The notes under the pieces are model-generated. The model searched no databases. It saw only the letters and a program-made list of their open reading frames with translations, and was not told where the DNA came from. A program made the position numbers and the translations under genes. Shown here one piece after another: positions 2,047-34,743 of a DNA stretch of 64,000 nt (positions within the stretch are counted from its first letter, which is position 1; every line of letters starts with the position of its first letter). The stretch is from a virus (Duplodnaviria; Caudoviricetes), in IMG/VR virus record IMGVR_UViG_3300032270_001157, positions 22,429 to 86,428 of that record; one strand, written 5' to 3'.

Positions 2047-2054
2047 TTGATTTC

Positions 2055-5000
2055 CTAGCAATTAACTGATTGTAATATCCAAGACCCATTAATAAAATTA
2101 AACATTCCTAAGTCTCCATTTGATACACTGAATCCCATGGGATTACCAAAAGTAGTTAAATATGAAATATCAATTGTATTATTTGGGTCTTGATAAATAT
2201 TATAAATAGATACTGAAGTATTTCCTTGAATAGTACCTGATGTAGTATAGGTTTTATTATAAACTGGTTCATAGAAGCCATTTTGTCCATTATATTTACA
2301 GTATACTGGTGCTTTTCTTGGTGCTGGATTTATTCCAAGATTATCTTGTACAAATACTAATTTTCTTAAGCCTTCTGGTAATGGGTCATTAGTATATGAA
2401 TCTTCTATAATAGCTCCCCTAGAAGGTTGTCTATTTACTAAATCAGTTTCAAGAACCACCCATACTGGTTTATAATTAGCTCCTACTGTCCAAACACCAG
2501 CATTAGCATCCCATCTTAAATCAACAGGACCAACAGGCCATGTGCTAGGTAGTTGTCCCCAGCCTTTATAAAACTGATGCTCCTTATAAGGCTCTGTCCA
2601 TGTTCCATCAGGTTTTTGAGTTTGATTTTTGTATATAATTTTCCCGGTGACTCTATCTTTAACTATTTCTCCATTAACAACTTTTGGCTCACCTGAAGCA
2701 TTAGGTACTGGATAGCCCTCTAAATCATAACCCCATCCGTGAACCATCAACGGACCACGCAAACCAAAGTATCTCATGTTATTGGCAGGAACAGTAGCAG
2801 GATTCATTCCTCTAAGACGAGTAAAATCCATGTAGTTTTGATCATAATCTAAAAAGCTACGTTCTATATTCTTAGAATATGCGGGCTTTAAGCCATTATC
2901 TCCTTCTGGTGCGGTTAAGCCCTGACCAATCAAATCTATACTATGACCAGTTAAATCATTTAATTGCCTATTAGGATAACTACTAAATTCTCCCACAGAC
3001 ATTAATACTGGATTTAATGTACCATAATTAATAATGGGGTTTCCACTTAATCCACTCACGGTGCCCAAATTATTTTTACCAATTAAAGTCAAATCATCTC
3101 CACTAGCAAGAATATACGGAGGATTAGTTTCTTTGGGAGAAGCAGAGACTAGCTGCTTTTTAGTTTTATCTTCTATAGTTTCGCAAAATGGACAATCTAC
3201 TGTTTTAGAGGTAATTGAATTTGTTATAGTATTAATATTTATATTAGAAGATGTAATAGAAGCATCAGGATCTATGAAATTATATGAATATTTTGCAGTT
3301 CCTTTGCAGAAAGGACATCCGGGCCTTGGATATTTGGTAATACTAAACGTAGCTCCGTGTGGAGTAGGATAAAATGAAATAGGAGATAACAAACCATCCA
3401 AACTCATCATGGATTTATTTGCGTAGCCATGTTTTAATTCCCTAGGAAGTTCTTGAACGTCTTGCAAAGAAACATTGGTTGATTCTCTAATCATATTCTT
3501 AGGGTCATATGATATATTATTCGCCACAAAAGGCATCTTTGACCAACCGGGAGAATAATTCAAGTCTCTATATATGTCTCCTATAGCACTATCAGGATGT
3601 ACTATGGGAGAATTGGCACCAGCCAAAATTTCAAATGGGCTCCATTGATACATCTTAGGTTGTTGAGTATGATTTAATATAGCATCAAAAATATTGCCAG
3701 GACCAGAATTTATCGATGAACCATACCGTGGACCATTATTTAGAGTGCCAAGAACATTTAATAAGCTGGTACTAAGTTCTTTTCTTCTCTTCAGTGATTC
3801 TGCTCCAATAGCTTTGATTCGGTCAGCATTTTCTTTATTATAAAACCCTAATTTTCTAGTATAGGTTCTCATATTATAGTTGGTGGTGATACCTCCCTCA
3901 CCCACCTGAACCTGAATACTACTAATAATAGGACCGCCAAAACCATCATTAGAAGAGGCTAGAGCATGTCCTAAATTAAAGGCTTTTCCAGCTAGATTCA
4001 ATAAGATTGCTCCTGGAACTTGAATAGATCCCTGCTCGGTAGTTTGCTGATAATTAACATCGTCTTTAATTTTTGCCATCACAGCAGCATCTAAAGCGTC
4101 CATTCCTCCATAATTCCAAGGAACCAATCCAGCATCATGGTTAACTTTAATTCCACCTACTAAATTATTAACATCATTAGAGGGGTTTGTTCGTCCACCA
4201 AAAATATTATTTTCTATTAAACCAGGATGATTAGTCCAAGGTCCATAGGTAGCTAAAACGCTCTCAACAGGAATAGCAGCAAAAAATGGATTTGCTGCTT
4301 TATTTAAAACAGAAGTATTCTCTGAGGATTCGTTGGTAATTTGTCCACCATTAGAACCAAAAAGAATTTCAATAGTTGAACTATCATTAAACCTATGCAT
4401 GATTAAAGATCTAGCATCCATATACACATAGTCTGGATAAGGATAGCGTCTTAGGCCACCATGAGTAGTTTGTCCAGCTGCTAGTGGATTAATCATAGGA
4501 GTTGGTATCGATGATCCTTTAACTACCTTATTCAAAGCATCTCCTTGCATTATATGAATCAAACCAACATCTTCAAAATTTCTATGATTTCCAATATAAA
4601 CTGGAGAAGATACCGATATTACTACTCTTAATTCAGCTTCTGGTTCTAAAAACACAAAATCTTGTTGACAAGAAGCCTTAGTATAAGTTTTATAAACTTT
4701 ATCTTGAGGCATTGGTTTACCGTGAGCTGTTGCATAACTAATAGAAGGAACTCCTCTATATGGTATATCTACATATTCTTCTGCTGGTAAAGAATGATGG
4801 ATAGAAGTATAATAGTTATTTCTTTCGTCTGTAGCAGAAGTAGCGTTCCTACCATTCAATAGAGCAACCCAATCGGTCATAATATGACTACCACAATCTG
4901 CGCTATTAATTAGACTAGCAGCCATAATATTTTTTTCTGCTACCCATTTTTCTCTACAATTAACTTCTGGATGAGAACTAAAGCCTAAGATTGGTGGAAT

Positions 5001-13570: not shown

Positions 13571-16500
13571 TTATGTTCGGAGCACTCCTTCTGTTTGAAT
13601 TGCTAGTTTGTTCATGGCTACATTTACTTCACCTAAGATCATTCTCTGAATAGGCTCTTGCATATTAGCGAATGCTGCTCCTCCATTAATAACAACCTCT
13701 ACCTTGTGTGTGCCTTGAATAGTAATCTGTGGTGGTAAGTTAAGTGCTGCAAGTTGACCAATAAATTTATTGAATGTGTTAGTAAATTGGCTTAATCCAT
13801 CCATATTTGGATTATTTGAGCCAGTATTATTAGATACACTATTTGTGGTACCTGAGGATAGTTGTTTTTGGTAATCGGACAGCATGGAAACTGCTAGTTG
13901 TAGGCTATTTGTGAACTGTTTGGTAGTTTGTGATAGAGATATAAATATTTGACCTAAATTAAACATACTACCACTCCTAACTCCAGGTATTCCTCCTTCG
14001 GATAAATAAGCCATACCACCACGACTCATATGATTGACGCCACCATTTATAGATTGTAGTAATGGTAGATTTTGCTGGGTGGCTTGACGATTAACAACAA
14101 ATTCTCCCGGAGTCAACATTGCTGGGATAGTATCAGTTCCGCGAGGCTGATAGTTAACTAAAGTTCCACGGGAAGCATAAATCATACCACCAGAGCTACG
14201 AAATGCTGGGTTACCAGCTGCTACTTGTGGATATAAAAAGCCTACAGTATTATTAATATTAAAAGGAGCTAATCTAGCAGCATTATCTTCATCACTATTT
14301 TGTGGATTAATATAACCCATCTTAGTTAATTGTTTACTAATATTATTTTTTAGCATGGCTTGTTGGGCTCGGTTCATCCCTTGTCCTCTTGCAGCCATTC
14401 TATCAATACTGCTAAAATTTCTTAATAGCTTAGAAAATGTTTTTTCTTGAGCTTTTTCTAGTTTTTTACGCTCATCCATATTACCTTGAAGATAAGTATC
14501 TCCATTATTAATTCTTAAAGCTAATGCTTCAATTTGATCTGGATTCATTCTTAATATAGCAATATCTCTAGCGCTATATTTGTAATTACCACCAGATGTT
14601 TCCTGACTCATTGCTTGAATTAATGCTTCAGCTTGATCTGGAGTAAATGGATGGAATAAATCTTGTGCGGCCCCTGCTGATAATCCGTACTGAGTTAGTA
14701 GCTTTTCATCTATCTTGTTACTACCGGTTAAATTAAACTTTTTCTTGAGTTTGGATAAAGCCTGTTCTCTCCAACCCATAAAAGCTTCTGGACTAGTAAA
14801 CTTATTGGGGGCTCCCATGCCCACAGCTTGTCCAACTGCTAACTCTAATCTGAATCGTTTAGCATTAGCCCTATTTGATGCTGCAATCTGTGCTTTATTA
14901 GCGTCCTGCTCTTGCTTTTTCCCGTGCATTTTCCACTGTTGATCTCTTTCTCTCATGGGCACATCAACAGCTATCATTCTATTTAATTTAATAATTTCAG
15001 AATTAATCTGGTCTCTTTCTCTAAGCAATCTTTCTTTATCTTTTTTCTGCTCCTCTGTCATATCCGCAGGATCAACAAAAGAGTACTGTTCTAGTTCTAG
15101 TTCTTTGTCTTTTTTCTTCTTGTTTAAAGATTGAGTTTGTTTATTAGGATCAACAGTTTGACCAGACTTTAATTTAACTGGTCCCGGTGTTGCTGGTTGG
15201 TGAACCCATCTATTGGCTTCTCTCTGATTTTCTGCTTGATTTCTGATTCTATTTGCTGTATCTACTTTATTTTTACCCCTTTGAGCAGAAGCTGTGAGGC
15301 CGTAGGTGTCTCCCGGCATTGATGTATCTGTTGCTACAGTAGCAGCGTCAACATCTCTTCCGTCTATTCTAAATACTGAAGAACTAGCTCTGGCTTGAAC
15401 TCTCTGATTTTCTAGTTCTTGTTCTCTTTTTCTCTCTTGAGCAGCTTGTTCGGCTTGTTTTTTCTCTTCTATTTTAGCTATTCTAGCTTCTTCACTCGCT
15501 GCGTGTTGTCTCTCTAAATACTGTTCTTGAGCACTAACCGCTGATTGGAATACCTCATTAGTACTATGTGTATTCCGGCCTTTGACTACTTTTCGATCAC
15601 GCCCAAAAGGTACTGAAATAGTATCTTCACTATTTAAACTATCATAAATATTAGATATCTGTTGATCTATAAATGCTTGTGTCATTAAATTGCCAACAGC
15701 GTCTTTGCGAGGTTTTGCTCCCTTTTGTAATCTTCTGCTTTCTATGTTAAATTCTGCTAATCTTTCAGCATCTCTTCTGTCCATTACATTTAATTTAAAT
15801 TCAGCTAGTGGATCATCAGCACTGCTAGATATAGTACTATTTTTGAGCATTCGGTCAGTATTGTTGTTAGAAGTGTGCATCTTTTTTGCATCACCATACA
15901 ATCCAACAGTTTCTTGTGTCAGCATATTTGCAGAAGCTATTAAGCCTGCTGTTGCTGGATCCAAACCAAATCCCATGTAGTATCCTGTGGTCAAACCTAA
16001 TTGACTAAAATTCCCTAATTGTGTATCCAACATAGTTCCTTGTTGAACACCAGTAGCTCGACCAAGCAGAGAGTGAGCACCAACATCTCCCATAGTTTCC
16101 CCAGTACCTGTAACCACCCCCAGAACAGTATTTACTGCTCTATTTCTACCAGTCTTATTAGGATCAGCCATGGCTCCACTGATAGCTCCAAAAGTTGGAC
16201 CTATTAACCTACCAACATAAGGAGCAGCCATTCTTGCAGCGCCAGAGGCTTGAGTGCCTATGTATTTTAAAGCTGTTGTAGAGGCTGCTCTAGGATTTTT
16301 AATAGCAGAACTAATATTAGAACCAACACTCTTAACTCCTTGATAAAGATTATCTAAGCCATCCATAGTGCTAGTTAGCCATCCTGGAAGTTTGGGACTT
16401 TTATAATTACTAGCCATTTCCAAAGCCCCTTGACTAGAATAAGCTCCTCGTTGACTAGTAGAGTTAATCCAGTTTCGGTAGTTGTCAAGCCATGCTTTTG

Positions 16501-19500
16501 CTCTTGGGTCTGTTGGTGCCATTTCTTCAACTTTTTTAACCTTATTAGCAAAATCAGACATATAATTAGCTATGGTTGAATCCCAAGTATCGGCGAGCGG
16601 ATCCATAGTTCCACCTGATAAATAAACCACTCCACCCTTAGCATAATTACCAGCATTAATACTCTTGAGCAATGGCAGATTGCGCTGAGTAGCTTGTCTA
16701 TTAACTACAAACTCACCCGGAGTTAACATTGCAGGAACAGTATCAGTTCCTCTTGGTTCATAATTTACTAAGGTTCCACCAGCAGCATAAACTGGACCAC
16801 CTTGTGATCTTGTCATAACAGTGCCGGGTCTGGCCAATCCCAAGTTTTGATTATTAGTCTGAGCTCCATTAAAAGCATTGGTTAATTTATCTAAAGCTGA
16901 GATCAAAGCTGTATTAGCAGTATTTAATATTTGACCCTGTTTTTCTAATAATGGATTAATAGCTCTTTGAGTAGCTTCTCCCAATGCCATTTGCTGTTGT
17001 TTGTATAAATTTTCTAGAGCTTTAATTTGTGGGTCTTGTGCTGGAGCGGCCCTTAGATTAGCAAGAATTTCTTTAAGGAAAGGATTATTCTCAACATTAA
17101 GACCTTGAGCCCGAGCAGTATTTTGGATTAAGTCTGCTCTTAAAGTGTTTGCTCTTTGCTTATCTGTAGTGTCTAAACCAGAAACTTGAATCATTTCGTT
17201 GAATAGACTAAAAGAATTTTTAGCATCAGCAGCAAAGGCATCCTGAGCAGCAGCCATAGCCTCTAAATTAGTACCACCATCTTGAATAGTTTTTCTATAA
17301 GCTTGTTGAGCAGATATTGATTGGTTGATAGTGGTGATTTGACCATTTAGTGTTCTATTAAGAAGATCATAGGTGGAATTGAGATTTCTTAATTCTGTGG
17401 GGGTGCTGGTGACTAATTTTTCTCCAAAAGAAGCACCAGCTTGAGTACGACTTTCTCTTTCTTGTACTAGCTGACCAATTTTACTCAGGGTGTCTTGCAT
17501 ATCTTGCTTAATAAGATCTGGTAAACCCTCTAGCCCCTTTTCAGTAGCCTCAATTTGTCTATTTAAACTAGCAAGAGCATCTTTTTGTTTGGCTATAAGA
17601 GAGATTACGGCTGGATCTGCTAAGTTCCCTGAACTATTTAATCTTTCAATATTACCTTCTACAGAACTTCTCTGATTAATGAGCATGGTTCTTTGATTAG
17701 TCAAATTAGCAGCTGTTAAAGAACCGGGCTTAACACCAGCATTTATAGCCGCTTCTGTATATCTGCCTGCTGATCTTTCTGTAAGAGATGTTCTACGTCC
17801 TTCTCCTAAGGCTTCTCTAAGAGATACCATGCTATCTGAAAGATAACCTTGTAAACTAGCAAACTTAGCAGTAGCTTGAGTTTGAAGTTCTGCTGCTTTT
17901 TGAACAGCATTACCATATGTATCTAAAGCTTTTTCGATAAAAGCATATTGTTTCATCATAGTGTCGAAGGCTTTTTTCTGAGAATCAATTAATTGCTTAA
18001 GCCCACCAACACTATCTATTAATGATTGAGGATCTAATACTCCGTCATTTTGTTTAATATTATCTTTAACAGCACCTTTTAATTGATTACGAATAGCATC
18101 AGAGATTCTATTATCTCCAAAAGTATTTATAAGCTGCTGAGTCAAATCTCTTGTAATATTTTCGCCTAATACTTCACCACTAGCTCCGGTCTGTTGTGCT
18201 TGAACAGCAATTCTGGTTATAGTATCTTCAGCCGAAGCACCAAATGTAGATAGTCCCTCCACAAACTTTTTATCTGTACCAAACATGCCGCTGACTTGAC
18301 TAACTGCTGTTTGGCGTTCTCTTGCTGAGTAAGCATTAGGATTCTTTAATATGTCGGTAGATTGAAACTGCGTTTTGAGAGATACTTGACCACTAGCAAT
18401 ATCATCAATTCTTTGACTAGCTCTGTCTAATCCTGTTGTGGCTGAGTCTATAGCCTGATCCATATTCTCAAAAGTTTTAGCTATACTAACAGATGATAGA
18501 TTTAATACTCTGGCAGATTGTTGTAGAGCTGTAACCCGTGCTCTTTCTGCTACCGTAGCTTGTAGTGTTGCTGTTTCTTCTTTAAAGTAGGTATCTATTA
18601 ATTCTTTTTGTCTCTGTTCAATTTCTGCTCTGATTTGTGGATCTTGACCTGCTGTTTTCTTAAGAGCTTCCAATTCTTGATTTTTAGTATTAAACTGCTT
18701 ATTTGTTTGAGCGATATTAAGCTTTGCTAATCCTTGATCTCCACCAAAAGATGATAAAGCTTGCTCAATATTTAGTCCACTTTCAACTTTAGCGGCTAGT
18801 GTTTTTAGAGCTATCTCACCACCAACTTTTTGATTAGCAGTTTCTTCTTCTCCGATTTGTGCATTGGTTGGTCGTGAGGCTTTATAAAAACCAAATGAAG
18901 CAGCTTCTAATCCACGAGTAAGCATACTAGGCTGGCGTAGCTCTGCTTGTTTAGCTGATATTTTTTCTTCTTCAGCAGCAATATCCTTGAAGTTTTTAAC
19001 TATCGAGGAGGTTAGAGCAGCATCTCTTGGATTCTTATTTAGTTTTTCTAACTGACCTTCTGCTGTAGTAGCACTATTTTCTATTTTCTTTTTGCTTAAA
19101 TCAATATCTGCTTCTTTAATAGCATTACGAAAACTATCAACAGCTAGTACAGTACCAGCTATTGCTCCTGCTAATGCTCCCCATGGACCAGCTTGTGCTC
19201 CTACAGCTATAGCTCCACCAAAAGCTGTACCAGCAGCAGCAACACCACGACCTGTGCTGCCCCCGACTGCTGCTCCAGCGGCTTCTGCTGCCATAGGAGC
19301 AGCAAATGCTAATGCTAAACCAGTATTCATATATGAAGCTCTACGATTTCTTTTAGCATCATATTGTGCTCTTTGAGCATCAGACATATTACCAACTTCT
19401 TCATCTGATGGTCCCATAACTTTACTTCTTAAAGAAGAAATGCTGCTACTGATAAAACCAGTAGTTTTAGAAGCAACACTTTGAACAGCTTGGAAGATAG

Positions 19501-22500
19501 TTTGTGTTTGTCGTGATGACTGAGCAACTTGTTGCGATGACTGAGCTGCTCTTTGTAGATTTTGATCAATAATTCTAGCAGAAGCTGCTGCTATATCTGA
19601 TGTGCTATCTCTTCTGGCTCCTTGAGGAAGAGGACCTATTAAAGTAGCATTGGAACGAGCAGTATCTATCCTATTTTGAATATAGCTATCTGTAGCTACT
19701 TTTTGGCTATTCTGAGCATTTTGTCTAGCTTCTTGAAATCCCATTCCTTTAGATCTATTGAAATTTAAAGCTTGTTGGTAAATTGCGTCCCCAAACTGCT
19801 CTATTTCCATCATTACTTTTTGTATTCTAGCTTCAACATCTCCTGGATTTGCTGATCCACCTACATTAAATCTTTGTATTCCACGAACAGCACCACCAGA
19901 ACGAAAGCCTAAAGCCTTTGTTGCAGCTTCACGAATAATGAAACTACCTACTGGTAACGATACTGGTCCAATACTATCACTAGTTCCTGATCCCGGACCC
20001 TTAAAAACACCAATACCTCCAGCAGAGAACGAACTCATTCCATTACGATCTGCTTGATTCATTTCTCTTAATTTGCCATATCCTATTGCTTTTGCTGTCT
20101 CTGGTGGAACAAAAGCTTCTCCATTAGAAACCATAGCTGGAACATTTCCACCCGCTGCATATCCTCGCATTTTCTTGAAAGATTTTTGATCACTGTTAAT
20201 CTCGTAATCTCTAACAGTGCGACCATCTTTCTTTGCATAGTCTGCAATTCTATTTTGTTTATTTATTATTGCTGCTCCAACTTTTTCTTGAATAGCAGAA
20301 GGCGGAGCTTTGTATGGTTTTAAAGAAACAGGCATAGGAATTGATCCTTCACCAAATCCTCCTACTTTCCACTGCTCTCCATAACCACCGGGAACAGGAA
20401 TTTGTTCCATAAACTGAGCTTCAGTTAAACCAGCCTTAATAATATCTTCTAGACTATACTTAAATCCTCCTCTTTGAATTAATTTTGGAGTTCCTCCTTC
20501 AGCAAACCTTTGAATAGCTCCACCACTCTTATATCCTTGAGTTTTTAGATAAGTAATAATATTATCTTCTACTGTTGATGGTCCACTAATAGTTCTTTTT
20601 GCGTCTGTTGCTATATTGCCTGGAATACCAAAATATTTAGCTGCCCCTTTTAATCCCTGTGGAAAGTCCATTCCTTGACCCTTAAGCGCTCCTGGCCCAC
20701 CGAGTTTCTGAATCATTTTTTCAAACAACACACCCTGAGCCGTAGCTTCTGCATTAGAATTGCCTGAGATTTTCCTATTTCCATAACGATATGCTTGTAT
20801 GCCTTCTTTGGATCTTGCTCTTGCAGCTTTAATATTTCTAGCATCATCATCAACAAATAATGAGCCTGGACTTAATAACGCTGCTTTAAGTTTAGCTATT
20901 TGAGATCCAGATACTCCTGGTCCTCCTAGTCCCTTAAATTGGGTAAGGGGGATTGGAAGTCCCTTGCTAGACAACCATTCTTGAACTAAGTCTAGGGTTG
21001 AAGCAGGTCGTGCTGTTATGAGTTTTAGATTGCTTAATAGCTCTGGTTTTTTAGATACGAGACCAGCTAATTCTTGTCCTAATGCGCTTAATTTGGCGCC
21101 CCTTAGTGCGGCCGATACCTTGTTTCTATCTCCAAACTCAGCAAACTTGGGAGTTCTTGGGTCAGATAAAATCTTGTCGGCACCGAAGGCTAATGTTCTA
21201 TCAAAGTCTAGATTTAATTCTTTGCCAAGACCAGTTTTAGCTAGAATATCAGCAATCATAACCTTTTTAGCGGCTCTTCCTGCACTTTTATTAAGGGAAG
21301 AATTAAAGGATTCTTCTATAGAACTAGCTACCGCAGGATCCATTATGCCACTAACAATTCTAACATCAACAGGAGCTTTAAGCTGATCAGAAGTGATTTT
21401 TTTATTGATTGGAGAGAATGGAGACCCTAACATACCAGCCGCCCCGAATAATAATCCCTTAGACGTTATTCTGGTTGTTCTGGCTTGTTGCGCTCCAGAT
21501 AATCTATTTTGTTTTTTGGTGAATTCTGCTAGAATAGCTGCTTTACTTGCTGCTTGGGCTTCTGTTGGAGCGCGCTTATTTAATGTAGTATATACATCTG
21601 TTGCACTAATACCTCCAGCCTTAGCAGCTGTTTCTAGACCTAATAATTTAATGATTTCACTAGTTGTTGCTTTTTTACCAGATGTTGGGGTTACTACGCC
21701 AGCATCCGCAAATTTAGAAATTGATCCGCCACTAGCAAGATATTTTCTCATTTCTTGTGTGGTCTTTTTTCTACCAGCTACATTCTCTAATTTATAAACA
21801 CTTTTTTCTTCAAACCCCTTAATTAAATTAGTTGCATCTGCTTTACTTAAAACATTTTTAATACTTTTTGATAACAGACCGGGCATAATCTTGCTGACAT
21901 CATTAGCATCTGTATCATAAAATGTTGGATATGACGCAACAGAGTTTGCTAGTTCTTGTTGAATAGCAGGATAGTTATTGTTTAATAATTGTTGAGCTAT
22001 TGATGAGGACTGCCCTGTGAATCGATATTTTTTACCACCAGACTTTAATGTTTTAAATACATCCTTAGATCTAATATAAGAAGCAAGTTTACTACTCAAA
22101 ACTCCTTGTAAATCTGGTGCCTTAGCCCAATTGCTGTTCCATGACTGTGGTAAATCTAAACCCATATTTGAATATATGCCAGCAACGGATAATTGTTTTT
22201 TCTGTAAATACTTTTTCAGTTTAGGAGAAAAAGAGTCTGGTTCCAGTCTAGCGTCTAAATGAGTAAAATGAGTAGCTGATGATGTTGGGAGTTCTTGTTT
22301 TTTCTTTGCTGCTTTCCCTGCTCCAGCCCTGTTTAAATCATAAAGTCTGTTGAGCCCAATATTACGAACAGCCTTTTTGTTCATAACAAACTCTCCCGGC
22401 GTTAACATTGCCGGAACAACATCTCCGTCTCCATAACCCGGAACATGACCACCAGAAGCAAAGGCTCTAATTGGTCCACCTTGACTATTTCTATTGGGTC

Positions 22501-24043
22501 TCATTCCACCAATAAATCCTCTACTAAACTGACCTAGTGCAGATAATCCTCTTAATGCGAAAATAGCTCCTAAAGCTGGTAGTGCTCCTTTAGCAGCATC
22601 TGTGAGTCTAATTAAATTACTAGTTAAGTCTAAAGATAGTTTAACGAAGGATTGAAATCCAGAGCTTTGTCCAATAGATCGAACTAAACCTACAAATTCA
22701 TTTCTTACTTTTGCCATTTGAACAGCTAATGATTGTTGTGCTGTTGCGGCATCAGTAGCTAAAGAGTCTTGTCCTGTTTGAGCAACTTTTAATGCTGCTT
22801 GGGCAGTTGCGAACTGTTGAATTAATGGAATCACCTTACCAATCTGACGAAAGCCACCAAGTTCTTCTACGATTCTGGAGAACTTTAAATCTCTGGGGTC
22901 TAATTGAGATAATCCTTCGCTCAATCTTCTAACAGCCTCATATGGTCCAACGAACTTACCTTGTAAATCTGTTAATGTAACACCATATTCTTTAAGGGCA
23001 TCGATTGTATCCCCTCTTTGAATTCTGGTAAAAATTGTTCTTAAACCAGTAGCAATGGTTTCGGCGCTTTCACGAGTTGTAGCACGAACACTGGTGAACA
23101 CAGCCATGAATTCATTTAGGGCTTGAGTACCTTCACTAACTCCCTTACTAGCTGTAGCAAACACACCACCGGTACGCTGAATAGCAGTAATAATGTCACC
23201 GGCTTCAACAGCAAACTTAGCAGCTACCGCATTTACTGAACCTAATGCTCGATCTAATTCGCCAGCACTAATACCGAACTGTCTCATCAATGCGATACTA
23301 CCTTCTACGGTACTATTCAAGTTATCGAATGATGGAGCTAATGCACTAAGAGCCAAAGCTTTTAATGCCTTCTCTGTATCTCTAGCACTTAAGCCAGCCT
23401 GAGCCAATGTACTAGATACTTTAATTAATTCATTAGATGACACACCGAACTTAGTAGATAAATCAGTAATTTCGGCAACTAATCCACCAAGATTTTTAAC
23501 TGATGTATCAGTAACCTGAGATACTCTAACCAATTCTTGATTAAAAGCAATAAAGTCTGTTGTTGCAGATGTTAGGGCGTTAGATACTTTATAAATCACT
23601 CCTGTTACTGTGGCAAAGGCGGCAAATCTACGAACAGCCAATGCTGACTGCTGACCAAACTCTCTAAATGCTGAAGTAGTCCCATGAACAGCAGCAGTAG
23701 CAGCAGCATTTTGTTGAGTTACATTTTGTGTGGCATTATTTATTTGTTGTAAATTAGCTGGTAAATTACCAGCACTATTATTAACTTGTTGTATAGCAGT
23801 CCCAAGATTTCTCAGAGATATTGCTGTAGCGTTTGCTGAAGCATTAGTGGCCTGTAGAGTATTATTAAAAGCTCTAAAAGTTTGATTAAGAGCACCGATA
23901 TTGCGGGCCACACCGGGATCCAAGCGAACATTAACATTAGCATTAATAGTTCCTAGTTGTCGCCTAATATCGGCAACAATAGTCCTAATGTTAGATGGTC
24001 CTCGTAAATTTAACTCAGCTGTAAGATTAAAACCTCTAGCCAT
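13571..24043 (-). CDS. Tail tape measure protein (TP901-type core) with inserted cargo domains, 3490 aa
   Basis: Ala/Gln-rich helical N-terminus with a TP901-like core (FNQELVRVSQVT..DLSTKFGVSSNEL..LAQAGLSA), a hydrophobic Gly/Ala segment at ~19140-19330, repeated PAMLTPGEFV motifs typical of TMP C-terminal regions, and a position downstream of the tail tube and chaperone genes. Confidence 0.92.
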   Translation of the reverse strand: MARGFNLTAELNLRGPSNIRTIVADIRRQLGTINANVNVRLDPGVARNIGALNQTFRAFNNTLQATNASANATAISLRNLGTAIQQVNNSAGNLPANLQQINNATQNVTQQNAAATAAVHGTTSAFREFGQQSALAVRRFAAFATVTGVIYKVSNALTSATTDFIAFNQELVRVSQVTDTSVKNLGGLVAEITDLSTKFGVSSNELIKVSSTLAQAGLSARDTEKALKALALSALAPSFDNLNSTVEGSIALMRQFGISAGELDRALGSVNAVAAKFAVEAGDIITAIQRTGGVFATASKGVSEGTQALNEFMAVFTSVRATTRESAETIATGLRTIFTRIQRGDTIDALKEYGVTLTDLQGKFVGPYEAVRRLSEGLSQLDPRDLKFSRIVEELGGFRQIGKVIPLIQQFATAQAALKVAQTGQDSLATDAATAQQSLAVQMAKVRNEFVGLVRSIGQSSGFQSFVKLSLDLTSNLIRLTDAAKGALPALGAIFALRGLSALGQFSRGFIGGMRPNRNSQGGPIRAFASGGHVPGYGDGDVVPAMLTPGEFVMNKKAVRNIGLNRLYDLNRAGAGKAAKKKQELPTSSATHFTHLDARLEPDSFSPKLKKYLQKKQLSVAGIYSNMGLDLPQSWNSNWAKAPDLQGVLSSKLASYIRSKDVFKTLKSGGKKYRFTGQSSSIAQQLLNNNYPAIQQELANSVASYPTFYDTDANDVSKIMPGLLSKSIKNVLSKADATNLIKGFEEKSVYKLENVAGRKKTTQEMRKYLASGGSISKFADAGVVTPTSGKKATTSEIIKLLGLETAAKAGGISATDVYTTLNKRAPTEAQAASKAAILAEFTKKQNRLSGAQQARTTRITSKGLLFGAAGMLGSPFSPINKKITSDQLKAPVDVRIVSGIMDPAVASSIEESFNSSLNKSAGRAAKKVMIADILAKTGLGKELNLDFDRTLAFGADKILSDPRTPKFAEFGDRNKVSAALRGAKLSALGQELAGLVSKKPELLSNLKLITARPASTLDLVQEWLSSKGLPIPLTQFKGLGGPGVSGSQIAKLKAALLSPGSLFVDDDARNIKAARARSKEGIQAYRYGNRKISGNSNAEATAQGVLFEKMIQKLGGPGALKGQGMDFPQGLKGAAKYFGIPGNIATDAKRTISGPSTVEDNIITYLKTQGYKSGGAIQRFAEGGTPKLIQRGGFKYSLEDIIKAGLTEAQFMEQIPVPGGYGEQWKVGGFGEGSIPMPVSLKPYKAPPSAIQEKVGAAIINKQNRIADYAKKDGRTVRDYEINSDQKSFKKMRGYAAGGNVPAMVSNGEAFVPPETAKAIGYGKLREMNQADRNGMSSFSAGGIGVFKGPGSGTSDSIGPVSLPVGSFIIREAATKALGFRSGGAVRGIQRFNVGGSANPGDVEARIQKVMMEIEQFGDAIYQQALNFNRSKGMGFQEARQNAQNSQKVATDSYIQNRIDTARSNATLIGPLPQGARRDSTSDIAAASARIIDQNLQRAAQSSQQVAQSSRQTQTIFQAVQSVASKTTGFISSSISSLRSKVMGPSDEEVGNMSDAQRAQYDAKRNRRASYMNTGLALAFAAPMAAEAAGAAVGGSTGRGVAAAGTAFGGAIAVGAQAGPWGALAGAIAGTVLAVDSFRNAIKEADIDLSKKKIENSATTAEGQLEKLNKNPRDAALTSSIVKNFKDIAAEEEKISAKQAELRQPSMLTRGLEAASFGFYKASRPTNAQIGEEETANQKVGGEIALKTLAAKVESGLNIEQALSSFGGDQGLAKLNIAQTNKQFNTKNQELEALKKTAGQDPQIRAEIEQRQKELIDTYFKEETATLQATVAERARVTALQQSARVLNLSSVSIAKTFENMDQAIDSATTGLDRASQRIDDIASGQVSLKTQFQSTDILKNPNAYSARERQTAVSQVSGMFGTDKKFVEGLSTFGASAEDTITRIAVQAQQTGASGEVLGENITRDLTQQLINTFGDNRISDAIRNQLKGAVKDNIKQNDGVLDPQSLIDSVGGLKQLIDSQKKAFDTMMKQYAFIEKALDTYGNAVQKAAELQTQATAKFASLQGYLSDSMVSLREALGEGRRTSLTERSAGRYTEAAINAGVKPGSLTAANLTNQRTMLINQRSSVEGNIERLNSSGNLADPAVISLIAKQKDALASLNRQIEATEKGLEGLPDLIKQDMQDTLSKIGQLVQERESRTQAGASFGEKLVTSTPTELRNLNSTYDLLNRTLNGQITTINQSISAQQAYRKTIQDGGTNLEAMAAAQDAFAADAKNSFSLFNEMIQVSGLDTTDKQRANTLRADLIQNTARAQGLNVENNPFLKEILANLRAAPAQDPQIKALENLYKQQQMALGEATQRAINPLLEKQGQILNTANTALISALDKLTNAFNGAQTNNQNLGLARPGTVMTRSQGGPVYAAGGTLVNYEPRGTDTVPAMLTPGEFVVNRQATQRNLPLLKSINAGNYAKGGVVYLSGGTMDPLADTWDSTIANYMSDFANKVKKVEEMAPTDPRAKAWLDNYRNWINSTSQRGAYSSQGALEMASNYKSPKLPGWLTSTMDGLDNLYQGVKSVGSNISSAIKNPRAASTTALKYIGTQASGAARMAAPYVGRLIGPTFGAISGAMADPNKTGRNRAVNTVLGVVTGTGETMGDVGAHSLLGRATGVQQGTMLDTQLGNFSQLGLTTGYYMGFGLDPATAGLIASANMLTQETVGLYGDAKKMHTSNNNTDRMLKNSTISSSADDPLAEFKLNVMDRRDAERLAEFNIESRRLQKGAKPRKDAVGNLMTQAFIDQQISNIYDSLNSEDTISVPFGRDRKVVKGRNTHSTNEVFQSAVSAQEQYLERQHAASEEARIAKIEEKKQAEQAAQERKREQELENQRVQARASSSVFRIDGRDVDAATVATDTSMPGDTYGLTASAQRGKNKVDTANRIRNQAENQREANRWVHQPATPGPVKLKSGQTVDPNKQTQSLNKKKKDKELELEQYSFVDPADMTEEQKKDKERLLRERDQINSEIIKLNRMIAVDVPMRERDQQWKMHGKKQEQDANKAQIAASNRANAKRFRLELAVGQAVGMGAPNKFTSPEAFMGWREQALSKLKKKFNLTGSNKIDEKLLTQYGLSAGAAQDLFHPFTPDQAEALIQAMSQETSGGNYKYSARDIAILRMNPDQIEALALRINNGDTYLQGNMDERKKLEKAQEKTFSKLLRNFSSIDRMAARGQGMNRAQQAMLKNNISKQLTKMGYINPQNSDEDNAARLAPFNINNTVGFLYPQVAAGNPAFRSSGGMIYASRGTLVNYQPRGTDTIPAMLTPGEFVVNRQATQQNLPLLQSINGGVNHMSRGGMAYLSEGGIPGVRSGSMFNLGQIFISLSQTTKQFTNSLQLAVSMLSDYQKQLSSGTTNSVSNNTGSNNPNMDGLSQFTNTFNKFIGQLAALNLPPQITIQGTHKVEVVINGGAAFANMQEPIQRMILGEVNVAMNKLAIQTEGVLRT
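20530..20760 (-). other. Putative PD-(D/E)xK restriction-endonuclease-fold domain embedded in the TMP
   Basis: Pattern GVLFEKMI...MDFP...TDAKRT matches the E..D..(D/E)xK arrangement of REase-fold toxin domains. Confidence 0.5.
20780..21225 (-). other. HAD-superfamily phosphatase domain embedded in the TMP
   Basis: All four HAD motifs occur in order: motif I LDFDRTL (DxDxT), motif II LITARP, motif III Lys (KLK), motif IV LFVDDDARNI. Confidence 0.8.
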
Positions 24044-29799: not shown

Positions 29800-30744
29800 T
29801 TACCAACTACTATGAGCAGAACGTCTCCAGAGATTGTTTGCTATACAAATATATAAGTATGATGAATCCCATACTATATCTCCTGGATTTCCAGAAGAGG
29901 ATGAGGACGCTATCATTCTATATGGTATATTAGTAGTGGATCTAGAAAAATCTATAATATCAGATAAATAATGTTGGTGTCCACTAATAGCATAATTACC
30001 AACAGGCTGTGGAATGTAATTTAAAGCCCCGCTAATATCTGTAAAAGATAAATTCACAACACCAGATCTAGAATTAAATGATGTAACACCACTGTTTCCT
30101 AAGGAATCAATAGTGATAGTATTAGAGCCATTATCGTAGTAAATATTAGTATATCCACTACCAACAATATTTAATCTATCTACGGTAGAATAATTTATAA
30201 CAGACGATGAGCCGTTACCAATTGTAAGATTGTGTGTATGTCCGCTAGCAGCATATAGTCCTGTTGGTTGTTTATTATCTAGAGCTAGTTGCAAGCCGCT
30301 CACTTGGTCAATAGAATGAGTATGATTAACCAGACTATAATTACCAGAAATCTGTGGAACATATCCTAATCTATTAATAATATTGGGGGCAGTTAAGAAG
30401 CCAGAACCAGAGCGACTCTCAATAATTAATCCCTTTGAGGCACTATTGTAAGAAATAGTTGTATCCCCGGAACCCAAAACATTTAAATATTCTCCACTGG
30501 ATAAATTTACAGCAATTCTCGGATCAGCACCATCTGCTATAGATAAATAAATTTGCGGAAAATTAATTGTTACTGGTGGATTATCAATGTAGGATAGTCC
30601 AGACCATCTAGTGACTCCATCTCCAACCTTTATATATCTGGTCTCTGTTTCATATCCGGGTTCTCCTAGTCCTAGAATTGGATTAGCAGACATCCATTCT
30701 CCACTCGGCGCTCTTCTTAATCTTATTCTACGAAAATCGCTCAT
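29800..30744 (-). CDS. Fibre protein with N-terminal Mtd-N (major tropism determinant N-terminal-like) domain and phage tail repeats, ~314 aa
   Basis: IRLRRAPSGEWMSANPILGLGEPGYETETRYIKVGDGVTRWSGL is the Mtd-N signature. HTHSIDQVSGLQLALD is a phage-tail-repeat-like motif. ATG overlaps the upstream TGA (ATGA). Confidence 0.75.
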   Translation of the reverse strand: MSDFRRIRLRRAPSGEWMSANPILGLGEPGYETETRYIKVGDGVTRWSGLSYIDNPPVTINFPQIYLSIADGADPRIAVNLSSGEYLNVLGSGDTTISYNSASKGLIIESRSGSGFLTAPNIINRLGYVPQISGNYSLVNHTHSIDQVSGLQLALDNKQPTGLYAASGHTHNLTIGNGSSSVINYSTVDRLNIVGSGYTNIYYDNGSNTITIDSLGNSGVTSFNSRSGVVNLSFTDISGALNYIPQPVGNYAISGHQHYLSDIIDFSRSTTNIPYRMIASSSSSGNPGDIVWDSSYLYICIANNLWRRSAHSSW

Positions 30745-33200
30745 AGTTTTTTGACTCCAAAAATTATTCCTGAAACTTCTGAAACTAACCAATTTTGTTG
30801 TGTTACTGGATTTTTATTCATGTAATATTGATAGGTTTTATAAGTGGTTTTATTTACAGAATGTTCTGGGCCTATTTCTACATAGTCATCTATTTTAGTT
30901 TTAAAAGGCTCGGTCGATGGAGTAAAGCTATCAGTATAACGAGCTACTCCGGAGGTTATTCTAAATTCATCAATATATCCTCCTTTACCAATAGCAGCTA
31001 AGTTTGCAACAACCTGATTATATCCATCACTAAAAAATTCAGAATAAATATTAGAAGAATTATTAAGATTCGGTGAGTATGTGGTACTGAATGTGCCTGT
31101 TGTTTCAAGAGTACTTACGAAATTAGACATATTTCCACTATTAGCTAAATAGTAAGAATTACCTGGTTCCCCATTCAGATAACAAATAATCTTATTAGCA
31201 CTATTCCTTGTAATAGCAACATGATGCCAAGTTCCTGTAGTTGCTGTGCTTGGAAAGAATAATTGTCTCTTTACCATAGCCTCTGGTGAGCTTATATTCT
31301 GAAGTGGGACACCACCATCGTCACCAACATATCCAAAAGTAGATAGGTATTGTATACCACTAATATTAGCAGCAAACGAGTAGGTTCTAAAGGAATAAAG
31401 AGGAGTATTGTGTAGTGGGATTTTGTCAAATAATGAAATATTGGTTGTATTATTAGGAAAATATATCCAAGATTCTATTGTAAAAGGAGAAGTAGATAGG
31501 TCTGGATAGTTATTTAGATATAAATAAGAACTTTGATTTCCAAAACTAATACTTCTAGTTCCTATTTTACTGGGAGTAGTAGTAGATGTTACATTACCCG
31601 TATAACTAATTGGTCTTAAATATGTAGAACTATCCACAATGGGACTAGATTCTCCACGCAATAATAATGTTACATTAGCTTCATAAATGTCACTAGTCCC
31701 AGAGTACATTACATTAATGAATTTGGTATCCAGATATTTTTTTCTAGCGCTATTATAAATTTTCATACCACCAATAGTATCATTCAAGTTTCCTCTCCAT
31801 GCTGAATTCGAGTCAAAACGATTGAAAGTGTTATATTGTAAATAGTTAGGTTGGCTCATTTTAATTGCGTCTATATTTCCACTAGCAATAGTTTCTATAC
31901 TATTTCCATCTGCGTCTGGTATTAATAATGCTCTTCTATGACTACTAAAGTCTGTAAAAGAAGATGAATTATCATTAGATATTATTCTTGGGGCTCCAAG
32001 AGACCATTTTAATAATCCATCGGAACATGTTCCATTATCTACTAAGTTACCTCCACAACCAGGAAATATAGACATAACTTTTGCAGAACTACCTAGCCAG
32101 AAGGAGGGTGGAGGATCGGTATTATCTATTAAAATTAAATCATCTAGCAGCCATGTTCTACCTTGCATATAATACCAAGAATCTTTCCAGCCTCCCTGTC
32201 CTGGGTCTGATTCTGTTATGCCATTCATTACAGAACTAGAATATGTACGATTATAAAAACGTAAATTATTAAAATTAAATCCACTTATAGGTAAACTTAA
32301 ATCCCATGATGATTTGAGTATGTTAGAATCTGGATTAACAACTGGTAAATTAATATCTTCAAGATTGATATATAAAAGAGGGGGACTAGAAGACTGGTCT
32401 ACAGAAAATTCTAAATGGGCCCATCGACTAATCATAGCGCTAAAACCAGGACCAGAGTTGGTGTCTGTTATAGTTAATATTTTATTATTGGTAGTATTAA
32501 AAACAGAACTAATTTGATAACGATTAATTAAGCCAGAAATATTTAGATCGAAGTAACCTAGAGTTTGATTATTTTGTTGTATTTCTAAAGCTAGAGTAGT
32601 TTTTACATTATTAATAGGTGTTAAATTATTTCCAGTAATTTTTACAACATTAACTGTTAAAGCAGGTAAGTCTCCACTATTATAGCTAAATAAAGTATGT
32701 CTGTATGGATATGTAGAATAATCACTATTCTTAGATTCTAATCCCAGACATCTCATAGATAAGTAAGAAATATTTCCTGACGGAAGAGGAAATCCACTAG
32801 CTTGTAAATATGTTGGGGTTTCTAAATTATTACTATTTTCTATATCTATATTTGTAAAAGCTAAAAAACCAAGAGGACTTCCAAAACCAGGATAACTATT
32901 TTTAGTAAAAAAATATGTATAATAATATGAAAAATATGCTCTATCATCCACATATCTGCCGCTAGGTACTAATCCATTAATTCCTTCTGGAGTACTATAG
33001 TTATAAACAAAAGAAAGTTTAACAGGATCGGAATCGTTCCCGACATAGAAGGCTGGATCGGCTCTATTATCTAATGAGATAGGAGTATAACCGCCAAAAG
33101 CATATTTAGGAAAAGCTTTATATTGAGTAGACCAGTATGTGGAATCTAGCTCATTTAGAACTACTCCTTTATCAAAACCTTCAAAAAATAAAGTAGACAT
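30741..33200 (-). CDS. Virion structural protein with an inserted LamG/ConA-like domain, 819 aa
   Basis: N-terminus MSTLFFEGFD, C-terminus NKNPVTQQNW..FGVKKL, and a LamG block FTIESWIY..WHHVAITR..YIDEFRITSGVARY at 30903-31691. Confidence 0.7.
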   Translation of the reverse strand: MSTLFFEGFDKGVVLNELDSTYWSTQYKAFPKYAFGGYTPISLDNRADPAFYVGNDSDPVKLSFVYNYSTPEGINGLVPSGRYVDDRAYFSYYYTYFFTKNSYPGFGSPLGFLAFTNIDIENSNNLETPTYLQASGFPLPSGNISYLSMRCLGLESKNSDYSTYPYRHTLFSYNSGDLPALTVNVVKITGNNLTPINNVKTTLALEIQQNNQTLGYFDLNISGLINRYQISSVFNTTNNKILTITDTNSGPGFSAMISRWAHLEFSVDQSSSPPLLYINLEDINLPVVNPDSNILKSSWDLSLPISGFNFNNLRFYNRTYSSSVMNGITESDPGQGGWKDSWYYMQGRTWLLDDLILIDNTDPPPSFWLGSSAKVMSIFPGCGGNLVDNGTCSDGLLKWSLGAPRIISNDNSSSFTDFSSHRRALLIPDADGNSIETIASGNIDAIKMSQPNYLQYNTFNRFDSNSAWRGNLNDTIGGMKIYNSARKKYLDTKFINVMYSGTSDIYEANVTLLLRGESSPIVDSSTYLRPISYTGNVTSTTTPSKIGTRSISFGNQSSYLYLNNYPDLSTSPFTIESWIYFPNNTTNISLFDKIPLHNTPLYSFRTYSFAANISGIQYLSTFGYVGDDGGVPLQNISSPEAMVKRQLFFPSTATTGTWHHVAITRNSANKIICYLNGEPGNSYYLANSGNMSNFVSTLETTGTFSTTYSPNLNNSSNIYSEFFSDGYNQVVANLAAIGKGGYIDEFRITSGVARYTDSFTPSTEPFKTKIDDYVEIGPEHSVNKTTYKTYQYYMNKNPVTQQNWLVSEVSGIIFGVKKL

Positions 33201-33588: not shown

Positions 33589-34743
33589 TTATTCTGGTCC
33601 GCCATTTGCATCTGTGGTGTCTCCAGATAATATCATAATATTTTCTCCAACCTTCACCAATGTAGCAACAGAGAATTGTCCAACTAATTTAGAGTGGCCT
33701 AGTCTATTTGCTAATCCAGCACTGGTAAATCTTACTTGTCCGGAACCAAGTTGGGAAACCAAGCAATTAAATCCTAAAGATAAATTATTATTGAATTGAA
33801 CATTAATTGAGCGAACGTTATTGGTAAAAGTTAAAACTTTTCCATTATCTGCTTGAGATATTGTGTAACCAGAACCAGATATACTTTGTAGAGAGGCTGA
33901 GAATCTTGTTAGTTGTCCATCTCCTAAAGATTGTGTTCCAGTAAAACTATTTCCCCCACTTAGTTTAGCAAAAAGACCAGACGATAGTGTGGCTATATCT
34001 CCCAATCCCAAGGTGTCTCTTTGAGCAGAGGCTGACGCATCGTTGATTAATATCTTTCCGGCATCTGTTATAGATATTGTTCCATATTTATCAACTCCGG
34101 TTCCACAAATCAGCTTATTTTGAGTCATAGACAAATTACTAAGCTCATTCAGTCTATTACTATAGGCTTGTACATTTGTTCCAATAGTTAATCCTGTAAC
34201 TGATATAGTTAAAGCATTAAGGTCTTGATCTGCATAACTTAGTTGAAGATAATTACCCGGCTGTAGTAAATTCGCTACTCTATCATCTACCGATTCATTA
34301 AAATTATCAATATCGCTGGGATTGTGATGATGTCCTATTGGAGAATATTGTGAACTCAAACTATCAGATGAAATATTGATAGTTTTAGTATTGGGAACAA
34401 ATGAAACAACAGTGCCTCCAGCTCCAACAATATTCAAAGTATCATTTTCTTGAATAGTAATATTACCAACATTTAATTTGGTTAATCCGGTCCCCGGTGG
34501 ACCCTGCAAGCCTGATGGTCCGATTGGGCCGCTTGGTCCTGCTGGACCAACTTCTCCACGCAAACCGCTTGGACCTGTTAATCCAGTTAAACCTCTCTCA
34601 ACATAAACAACACCAACAGTATTATCAAAACCATCTACTATATTAAGGTTTGTAGTAATAACACCGGTACTATCAGAACCATCTATGGATTGATTAATAA
34701 CTAAAATTTTAGGAGATGATGGTGTGATATTAACAGTAGCCAT
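33589..34743 (-). CDS. Collagen-repeat fibre protein, 384 aa
   Basis: Twelve Gly-X-Y triplets (GLTGLTGPSGLRGEVGPAGPSGPIGPSGLQGPPGTG), tail repeat HHHNPSDIDNFNESVDDRV, ASAQRDTLGLG, and a C-terminal fibre-tip motif (YTISQADNGKVL..LGFNCLVSQLGSGQV). Confidence 0.75.
   Translation of the reverse strand: MATVNITPSSPKILVINQSIDGSDSTGVITTNLNIVDGFDNTVGVVYVERGLTGLTGPSGLRGEVGPAGPSGPIGPSGLQGPPGTGLTKLNVGNITIQENDTLNIVGAGGTVVSFVPNTKTINISSDSLSSQYSPIGHHHNPSDIDNFNESVDDRVANLLQPGNYLQLSYADQDLNALTISVTGLTIGTNVQAYSNRLNELSNLSMTQNKLICGTGVDKYGTISITDAGKILINDASASAQRDTLGLGDIATLSSGLFAKLSGGNSFTGTQSLGDGQLTRFSASLQSISGSGYTISQADNGKVLTFTNNVRSINVQFNNNLSLGFNCLVSQLGSGQVRFTSAGLANRLGHSKLVGQFSVATLVKVGENIMILSGDTTDANGGPE

Follow-up and report, generated by a model that had tools for sequence, protein, structure and literature searches.

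Tape measure proteins (TMPs) are usually treated as rulers and channel formers, sometimes with a cell-wall hydrolase; such embedded hydrolases, TMP mosaicism, and the gain and loss of segments driven by repeats are all already known. Among mycobacteriophages, enzyme motifs embedded in a TMP are established: TMPs of the TM4 type are reported to contain peptidoglycan-hydrolase motifs (Piuri and Hatfull 2006, cited in PMC13277306). The TP901-1 TMP has 11/18-amino acid (aa) aromatic repeats, and TMP repeats have been proposed to ease the gain or loss of segments (PMC5099701). In lambda, gpH is cut in a Gly-rich region, by estimate at roughly residues 690-730, into gpH* and gpHC (PMC12617516). Here we describe the TMP gene, with its product P0001, in a stretch of 64,000 nucleotides (the window; positions 22,429 to 86,428 of IMG/VR record IMGVR_UViG_3300032270_001157, an 86-kb linear viral contig estimated to be 58% complete). 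The protein contains five copies of a 65-75 aa module, and we think it likely that this module is a protein-level connector, or joint, that has been multiplied in giant TMPs, that the slots between joints are exchanged, and that a HAD-like enzyme is carried in one of them. The features discussed are collected in Table 1.

P0001 matches PF10145 (E 1.2e-24, 87.7 bits against a cut-off of 33.2), TIGR01760 (E 5.5e-23, 81.5 bits against 28.8), and phrog_28, tail length tape measure; with the first two above their curated cut-offs, it is by family assignment a TP901-type TMP. No further Pfam or NCBIfam family was matched in a whole-protein scan, and phmmer searches of the PDB with P0001 and its relatives P0122 and P0123 returned nothing at E <= 1. 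The decapeptide PAMLTPGEFV has three exact occurrences (aa 544, 2437, and 3307) and one variant form, PAMVSNGEAF, at aa 1302; a fifth, degenerate copy (c2b, aa 1339-1397, core GPGSGTSDSI...GSFII) was detected by an independent profile made from ordinary phage TMPs. An earlier sequence-only reading of this DNA had counted three to four copies, which is borne out by the three exact copies and the variant. It had also claimed about ten sites of the form GG-x(3-6)-[FY]-x-x-GG; that strict pattern is present only twice (aa 522 and 1174), and it is the looser [FY]xxGG that reaches 10 sites, against 1.4 +/- 1.2 expected (1,000 shuffles, maximum 7). The intermediate form GG-x(2-8)-[FY]-x(2-3)-GG was found at six sites, against 0.14 expected by shuffling. 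Short aromatic/GG motifs border every full module, and solitary ones lie at aa 768-786 (YLASGGSISKFADAG) and 1171-1184 (YKSGGAIQRFAEGG). Self-BLAST of the whole of P0001 gave the identity match only; the repeats emerged with fragment-versus-whole BLAST, which put the repeat unit at 50-80 aa and aligned c3 with c4 over 49 aa at 82% identity. A profile built from five proteobacterial phage TMPs matches all five copies, c1, c2a, c2b, c3, and c4, with E values of 1.4e-10, 4e-4, 1e-5, and 3e-15 for the first four.

The signature shared by the five copies is aromatic-A-x-GG ... P-A-x-L-x-x-G-E-F-V ... helix ... aromatic-x-x-GG; i.e., an aromatic-A-x-GG opening is followed by a short linker, a predicted beta-hairpin at PAMLTPGEFV, a short helix ending in N, and a closing aromatic-x-x-GG. 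Over the 38 module copies aligned to make profile A4, the G-E pair, L, N, and G are invariant. An AlphaFold model of aa 2390-3490 (model 2) likewise predicts, at low confidence, a beta-hairpin (AMLT / EFVV) plus a short helix in each module. Isolated modules matched no Pfam, NCBIfam, or PHROG family except phrog_35029 (unknown function). Copies c2a and c2b are directly in tandem (19853-20176) yet differ in subtype: the GPGxGxSDSI form, known from ordinary TMPs (proteobacterial and actinobacterial), is retained by c2b, whereas the other P0001 copies have lost it or show LVNYxPRGTDT instead.

The module is very widely distributed. A single-module search found 1,687 proteins, many with 2-4 copies, and profile A4 found 25,595 cluster representatives at E <= 1e-3 (1,234 at E <= 1e-30), with up to ten module stretches per protein and proteins of up to 7,800 aa. 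By tblastn, 233 records of isolated phages contain the module, nearly all of them at a place annotated as a TMP gene; among the hosts are Gordonia, Mycobacterium, cyanobacteria, and Proteobacteria, and isolated carriers are most often the TMPs of Gordonia and Mycobacterium phages. In five ordinary TMPs (about 930-1,020 aa), a single module lies 60-70 aa before the C-terminus. In a search of 177,635 PDB sequences, every A4 match at E < 0.01 was a TMP: Douge gp16 (E 1.7e-11, two copies), the TMP of 8rk3 (E 0.0055), and lambda gpH at residues 733-793 (E 0.0066). The lambda match needed the 38-copy profile; a 4-sequence profile gave E 0.97 and a narrow subfamily hidden Markov model E 0.38. A search with aa 560-3490 of P0001 brought up giant TP901-type TMPs, at least 176 in number and 2,700-6,100 aa long, with 3-8 strong modules apiece. 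By these profile matches, the module is a near-universal unit close to the C-terminus of siphophage TMPs, multiplied here, and the suggestion that it forms a system peculiar to the window does not stand. The P0001 repeat would then be the near-C-terminal joint of siphophage TMPs, multiplied in an uncultured lineage of giant ones.

That the repeats sit at segment borders, as the sequence-only reading had it, was borne out by BLAST of P0001 against 119 giant relatives, which are not independent samples: homology blocks end preferentially at aa 500-600, 750-790, 1175-1200 (31 ends), 1275-1300, 2475-2500 (77 ends), and 3275-3360, so clustered that 61% of all block ends, and 94% of the ends of blocks of >= 60% identity, lie inside joints covering 13.5% of the length. 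The N-terminal block, aa 1 to ~580, is 50-92% conserved in nearly all of these relatives, and the central segment aligns at 24-37% in most of them, always ending at c3. Such a pattern might be an alignment artefact, in which no cassettes are exchanged and the joints are slow-evolving islands with flanks diverged past recognition; most of the 119 relatives are indeed distant (24-40% identity in the tape), and alignments stop where conservation stops. This explanation is contradicted by the close relatives. P0125 and P0001 are 92% identical from aa 1 to 581; the next stretch, to 1295, is unrelated, and homology resumes at 1296, with the YAAGG at the start of c2a. In P0123 the 92% identity lasts to aa 575, and a different, longer insert follows. 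An identity of 92% is thus lost to undetectability abruptly, at aa 575/581. P0124 lacks aa 1185-1287 (block D) exactly between two GYxSGG motifs, so that the end of block C is fused to c2a, and block B is replaced in all three of these proteins. The linker YLASGGSISKFADAG also opens block C in P0123, P0130, and P0151, elsewhere in those proteins, and divergence sets in right after YKSGGAIQRFAEGG in P0123 and P0151. The pre-terminal slot in four close relatives measures from 383 to 1,734 aa and is assembled from shuffled sub-blocks, so that one and the same slot differs by hundreds to 1,700 aa. With these breakpoints, the precise deletion in P0124, the shuffled slot, and the crossover described below all speaking against it, we regard the artefact explanation as highly improbable.

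The closest relative, P0122, is encoded on a syntenic 90-kb contig, L001. It is collinear with P0001 to aa 3351, and again from aa 3282, the two alignments overlapping within c4. At the DNA level, c4 corresponds upstream, through the YAS codons, to L001 module 3, and from RGT on to L001 module 5, with 83-97% identity to a different module on either side of the junction; in L001 those two modules are separated by a further stretch of about 1,064 residues that contains another module. Joint c4 is thus a DNA chimera of two L001 modules, itself a crossover product. In-frame recombination products survive at joints: homology blocks end there, and c4 is a crossover product, which makes the joints survival sites of in-frame recombinants. 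The idea of a recombination anchor is to this extent upheld, as whole inter-module segments have been replaced, lost, or gained with breakpoints inside modules or GG motifs, and invariance of the inter-repeat segments, named beforehand as the refuting outcome, was not observed; the segments vary among relatives.

Single-linkage clustering of 635 inter-module segments chained them into one large cluster and shows high diversity only; 396 internal inter-module segments fell into 109 clusters, 79 of them singletons. A related-locus search of IMG/VR returned two loci for slot 1 (the segment between c1 and c2a) and none for block G. The parts that are conserved are the N-terminal core with the first joint, the central, putatively membrane-active, tape segment ending in the third, and the last joint with the C-terminal plug, which is the three-module layout of TMPs of 1,800-2,000 aa; giant TMPs would accordingly seem to arise through segments added between joints. 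TMPs of closely related phages range from 3,490 to 5,383 aa. At L001:10001-23908 and window 13571-24043, the two TMPs are ~86% identical yet 4,635 and 3,490 aa long, and the tail genes that flank them in these syntenic phages are shared (1,447 aa, 1,816 aa, and 558 versus 560 aa). From the difference of 1,145 residues it follows that either the tails differ by > 100 nm in length or the extra segments are not counted in the length.

The DNA sequences of c1, c3, and c4 are only 76-81% identical to one another, and the codons shared at identical residues are no more than codon usage predicts (c3 versus c4, 22 against 19.0 expected; the other two pairs, 7 against 5.8 and 6 against 5.4); the copies must accordingly be old, with the peptide as the target of the selection that maintains them. 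Codon comparison thus shows that the joints are maintained by protein-level selection and not by DNA homogenisation. Viable in-frame products would be obtained at joints because these offer short runs of forced identity in a flexible, self-contained peptide, and recombination there is probably a by-product and not the purpose of the module.

The multi-effector cassette of the sequence-only reading is upheld only in part: one slot contains a conserved HAD-like enzyme domain, and the other large slot resembles helical tape. AlphaFold model 1 (aa 500-1400, built from a 7-sequence alignment) has a mean predicted local distance difference test score (pLDDT) of 39, the exception being aa ~939-1050 at 55-86. 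The top VIA row for this region is the T4 Pnkp 3'-phosphatase (Z 7.3, root-mean-square deviation 3.6 A, 103 aligned residues), followed by Pnkp1 (Z 7.1), class C acid phosphatases, and many other HADs; the top Foldseek rows are all HAD phosphatases as well, albeit weak (E >= 0.07). All four HAD motifs are present (D946-x-D948-x-T950, T1010, K1053, and D1065-D1066), and in all 49 homologous TMP segments compared (27-93% overall identity) no change is seen at D946, D948, T950, T/S1010, K1053, D1065, or D1066. Because of this invariance, a working enzyme can be argued for despite the missing Pfam HAD match; the predicted fold and the motifs together argue for a HAD phosphatase-like, putatively active enzyme domain at aa ~940-1075. 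Block C, in which it lies, holds its GG linkers while its position varies among relatives. The nearest ESM Atlas cluster for block C is DUF2608 at 0.76, a lead only, and the Atlas holds nothing at >= 0.9 for block C or block G.

The other domain labels of the sequence-only reading fared unequally. Its TP901 core is a Pfam match and its HAD block has the predicted fold and the motifs just described; its "His" and "REase" assignments gained no support, as block B (aa 586-767) and aa 1076-1170 have pLDDT < 40 and no Pfam match, and VIA gave no PD-(D/E)xK or HNH rows. Its "C-terminal cargo" is a variable block, found in only about 12 relatives and predicted to be helical: in model 2, block G (aa 2481-3277) consists almost only of long helices (pLDDT up to ~80 in parts), and it has no match in Pfam, the PDB, or the Atlas. 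A few giant relatives carry inserts known to Pfam, namely ADP-ribosyltransferase PF03496, PF28597, PF16581, and EF-hands. These relatives (P0196, P0183, P0193, P0158, P0128, and P0152) are all > 5,000 aa; the PF10145 core is present in all but P0152, which has EF-hands only.

The long helices of block G would suit an explanation in which the joints are assembly punctuation only, binding or registering the tail assembly chaperone, the tube, or the hub and so keeping a long oligomeric ruler in register; the segments between joints would all be ruler of varying sequence, and the HAD-like region a relic or spacer. The single module of ordinary TMPs lies just before their hub-inserted C-terminus (PMC13033339), and the range of 3,490 to 5,383 aa among close relatives is expected if tail length varies freely. 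A spacer, however, would not need HAD catalytic residues invariant in 49 of 49 segments, nor does this account for a block C that shifts position among relatives yet retains its GG linkers, or for relatives with non-structural domains such as PF03496; we consider it unlikely.

We prefer the connector reading, which may be pictured as follows. The order along the protein is TP901 core, J1, slot 1 (block B, HAD-like block C, block D), J2a/J2b, a putative membrane-active stretch followed by tape (about 1,000 aa), J3, slot 2 (the 800-aa block predicted to be helical), J4, and tail-tip plug; core, tape, joints, and plug are retained among relatives, and the slots are filled, emptied, and reshuffled. 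The central segment (aa 1398-2407) is hydrophobic and Gly/Ala-rich around aa 1560-1640, with its sole strong hydrophobic window at aa 1575-1594 by composition analysis, and then long, rich in helix formers, and low in Gly/Pro, this latter stretch being the probable length-setting tape. The tail, aa 3353-3490, is a probable tail-tip plug by analogy to lambda gpH 818-849 and Douge gp16 1658-1699, which sit in the tail-tip/hub lumen (PMC10721106, PMC13033339). The joint itself would be a flexible, self-contained connector, serving within the tail lumen as a hinge or as a site of docking or registration, and perhaps, by analogy to lambda, also as the place of the maturation cut; because of that flexibility, any segment might be tolerated between two joints. 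TMPs leave the tail ahead of the DNA, and the HAD-like domain may for that reason travel in the tail tube and reach the host envelope or cytoplasm. The tube lumen is about 4 nm, which a folded 135-aa domain in 3-6 copies exceeds, so the domain would be at most partly folded in transit.

Several points weigh against this reading. The HAD fold match is middling (Z below 8), and no Pfam or NCBIfam HAD model was found at E <= 1 in P0001; an enzyme-like fold was found in only one slot; and host delivery and cutting at the joints are steps that we infer from other TMPs. The module as a monomer has AlphaFold pLDDT < 40, and it is not resolved in the lambda and Douge cryo-electron microscopy (cryo-EM) models (PMC10721106, PMC13033339). 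For distant relatives, conserved islands in fast-evolving sequence could partly explain the block ends located at joints, and the clean breakpoints come from close relatives only, among relatives that are not independent samples.

Cutting at every joint would make P0001 a true polyprotein: each joint would be a proteolytic or self-cleaving site, and the protein would break up, as tails mature or once it has been ejected, into a ruler, free enzymes, and a tip plug. In lambda gpH, the homologous module (733-793) directly follows the estimated cut region (~690-730), and T5 pb2 too is cleaved close to its C-terminus (PMC12617516). The predicted models leave the Gly-Gly flanks exposed and flexible, and strong protein-level conservation suits a recognition site. 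The processing or unfolding signal suggested in the sequence-only reading would have its parallel in lambda. Set against the polyprotein, the lambda cut is unmapped and could fall upstream of the module, a search of the 86-kb record (~58% complete) for JAB or NlpC/P60 peptidases found none, a conserved catalytic-looking triad is not evident in the module, and, since a ruler severed at internal joints ahead of tube polymerisation would be unable to measure length, cutting would have to come late. We take the polyprotein to be a doubtful though serious candidate. Its more specific form, in which cutting takes place at the joints at a late stage of assembly or upon ejection and a Pnkp-like HAD 3'-phosphatase is released ahead of the DNA, strikes us as rather improbable. 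If it were true, relatives would likewise release ADP-ribosyltransferases and other enzymes into the host, and the siphophage tail lumen would be a programmable multi-effector delivery device, its payload swapped at a universal joint.

Table 1. Features of the TMP gene and of the genes directly downstream, in window coordinates.
Feature	Residues (aa)	Window position	Strand	Basis or remark
TMP gene (P0001)	1-3490	13571..24043	(-)	3,490 aa, longest open reading frame (ORF); PF10145, TIGR01760, phrog_28
TP901-type PhageMin_Tail core	191-384	22892..23473	(-)	Pfam; inside conserved N-terminal block aa 1-514
Joint module c1, early subtype	515-585	22289..22501	(-)	FASGG ... PAMLTPGEFV ... helix
Variable block B ("His domain" of the sequence-only reading)	586-767	21743..22288	(-)	Closest relatives only
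Solitary paired-GG linker YLASGGSISKFADAG	768-786	21686..21742	(-)	Start of block C; motif count
HAD phosphatase-like domain (putative), in block C (aa 787-1170)	~940-1075	20819..21226	(-)	Predicted fold and motifs
Paired-GG linker YKSGGAIQRFAEGG	1171-1184	20492..20533	(-)	End of block C
Variable block D	1185-1287	20183..20491	(-)	Absent from P0124
Tandem joint modules c2a (PAMVSNGEAF) and c2b (classical subtype)	1290-1343 and 1339-1397	19853..20176	(-)	
Conserved central segment, probable length-setting tape	1398-2407	16823..19852	(-)	Composition, alignment
Joint module c3, late subtype	2408-2480	16604..16822	(-)	Motif, self-BLAST, profile
Variable block G ("C-terminal cargo" of the sequence-only reading)	2481-3277	14213..16603	(-)	About 12 relatives only
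Joint module c4	3278-3352	13988..14212	(-)	Recombination junction ~14170/14171 (YAS/RGT)
C-terminal tail, probable tail-tip plug	3353-3490	13574..13987	(-)	Extreme C-terminus conserved in nearly all relatives
Downstream gene, 1,447 aa		9215-13558	(-)	No Pfam/PHROG match
Downstream gene, 558 aa		7517-9193	(-)	No Pfam/PHROG match
Downstream gene, 1,816 aa		2055-7505	(-)	No Pfam/PHROG match

The neighbouring tail genes are mostly without any family in the library scans, and because the three large genes directly downstream of the TMP gene had zero Pfam or PHROG matches, the distal tail and hub proteins of this lineage appear to be unrecognisable by sequence. Upstream in the structural module lies a 4,034-aa ORF at 34760-46864 (-), near which are encoded a collagen-repeat protein (33589-34743), a Laminin_G_3 protein (30741-33200), and an Mtd_N protein (29800-30792); the set of fibre genes around 34760-46864 is unusually large for an 86-kb fragment. 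Far from the tail-tip genes, a 663-aa protein at 55718-57709 (-) matches PHROGs at E 2.5e-72 and 4.1e-70 that represent repeat domains of giant virion structural and "baseplate wedge" proteins.

The module is a very widespread unit (25,595 clusters) that has no Pfam or NCBIfam entry and would mark where TMPs can be extended, with at least one conserved, non-lytic, enzyme-like domain inserted at a joint. It offers a mappable candidate for the maturation region of lambda gpH, a rule for finding tail-carried enzymes (i.e., search between joints), and possibly a natural design principle for payloads in phage tails or tailocins; it also raises the question of what sets tail length, given that the TMPs of close relatives can differ by > 1,000 residues. 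In the literature searched, we found no earlier description of the joint-and-slot architecture, nor of a link between joints and the borders of inserts.

Some described systems resemble P0001 in size or in modularity. Gp96 of Thermus phage P23-45 (NC_009803) is another giant TMP, from a cultured siphophage (5,002 aa, with an annotated metallopeptidase domain); it gave no domain-level match with three module profiles and at best a marginal whole-sequence score (E 0.014), and it appears to be built differently. Polyvalent proteins of phages and conjugative elements (PMC5512222) and the TMP-related Sle1/Tme effectors of contractile injection systems (PMC13277306) have in common with our reading of P0001 the concept of a multidomain protein, borne by virion or tail, whose exchangeable modules are delivered with or ahead of DNA; the survey of the former contains zero mentions of tape measure proteins (PMC5512222), and in Sle1-type effectors a single C-terminal domain varies and a repeated joint is lacking (PMC13277306). 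The TP901-1 TMP shares the Pfam family of the N-terminal core, but its repeats are short, tandem, and helical and set length within the ruler, whereas the P0001 module is 65-75 aa, non-helical, and dispersed between unrelated blocks.

Lambda gpH has, like P0001, the module itself, in one copy (FATGG ... RGEFVF ... YATGG, 733-793; E 0.0066) in a Gly-rich C-terminal region about 70 aa before the tip-plugging C-terminus, a layout matched by c4 and the tail that follows it; in lambda this stretch belongs to the C-terminal fragment that is freed when gpH is cut, and by analogy we infer that the lambda module and the P0001 joints share a function. They differ in that gpH is 853 aa with one copy and no enzyme insert, while P0001 is 3,490 aa with five copies plus solitary GG linkers. 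The lambda structure PDB 8IYK models gpH 818-849 only, and the Douge structure gp16 1658-1699 only (PMC10721106, PMC13033339). Douge gp16 (PDB 8ZDO chain S, PMC13033339) has two modules, 953-1035 and 1412-1461, neither of them modelled in cryo-EM; Douge, as a cultured and structurally studied mycobacteriophage with two modules, is a ready system for tests of cleavage or docking. The embedded activities known from mycobacteriophage TMPs are cell-wall hydrolases, whereas the P0001 insert is HAD phosphatase-like, and where Douge gp16 has two joints, the giant relatives of P0001 repeat theirs up to 10 times.

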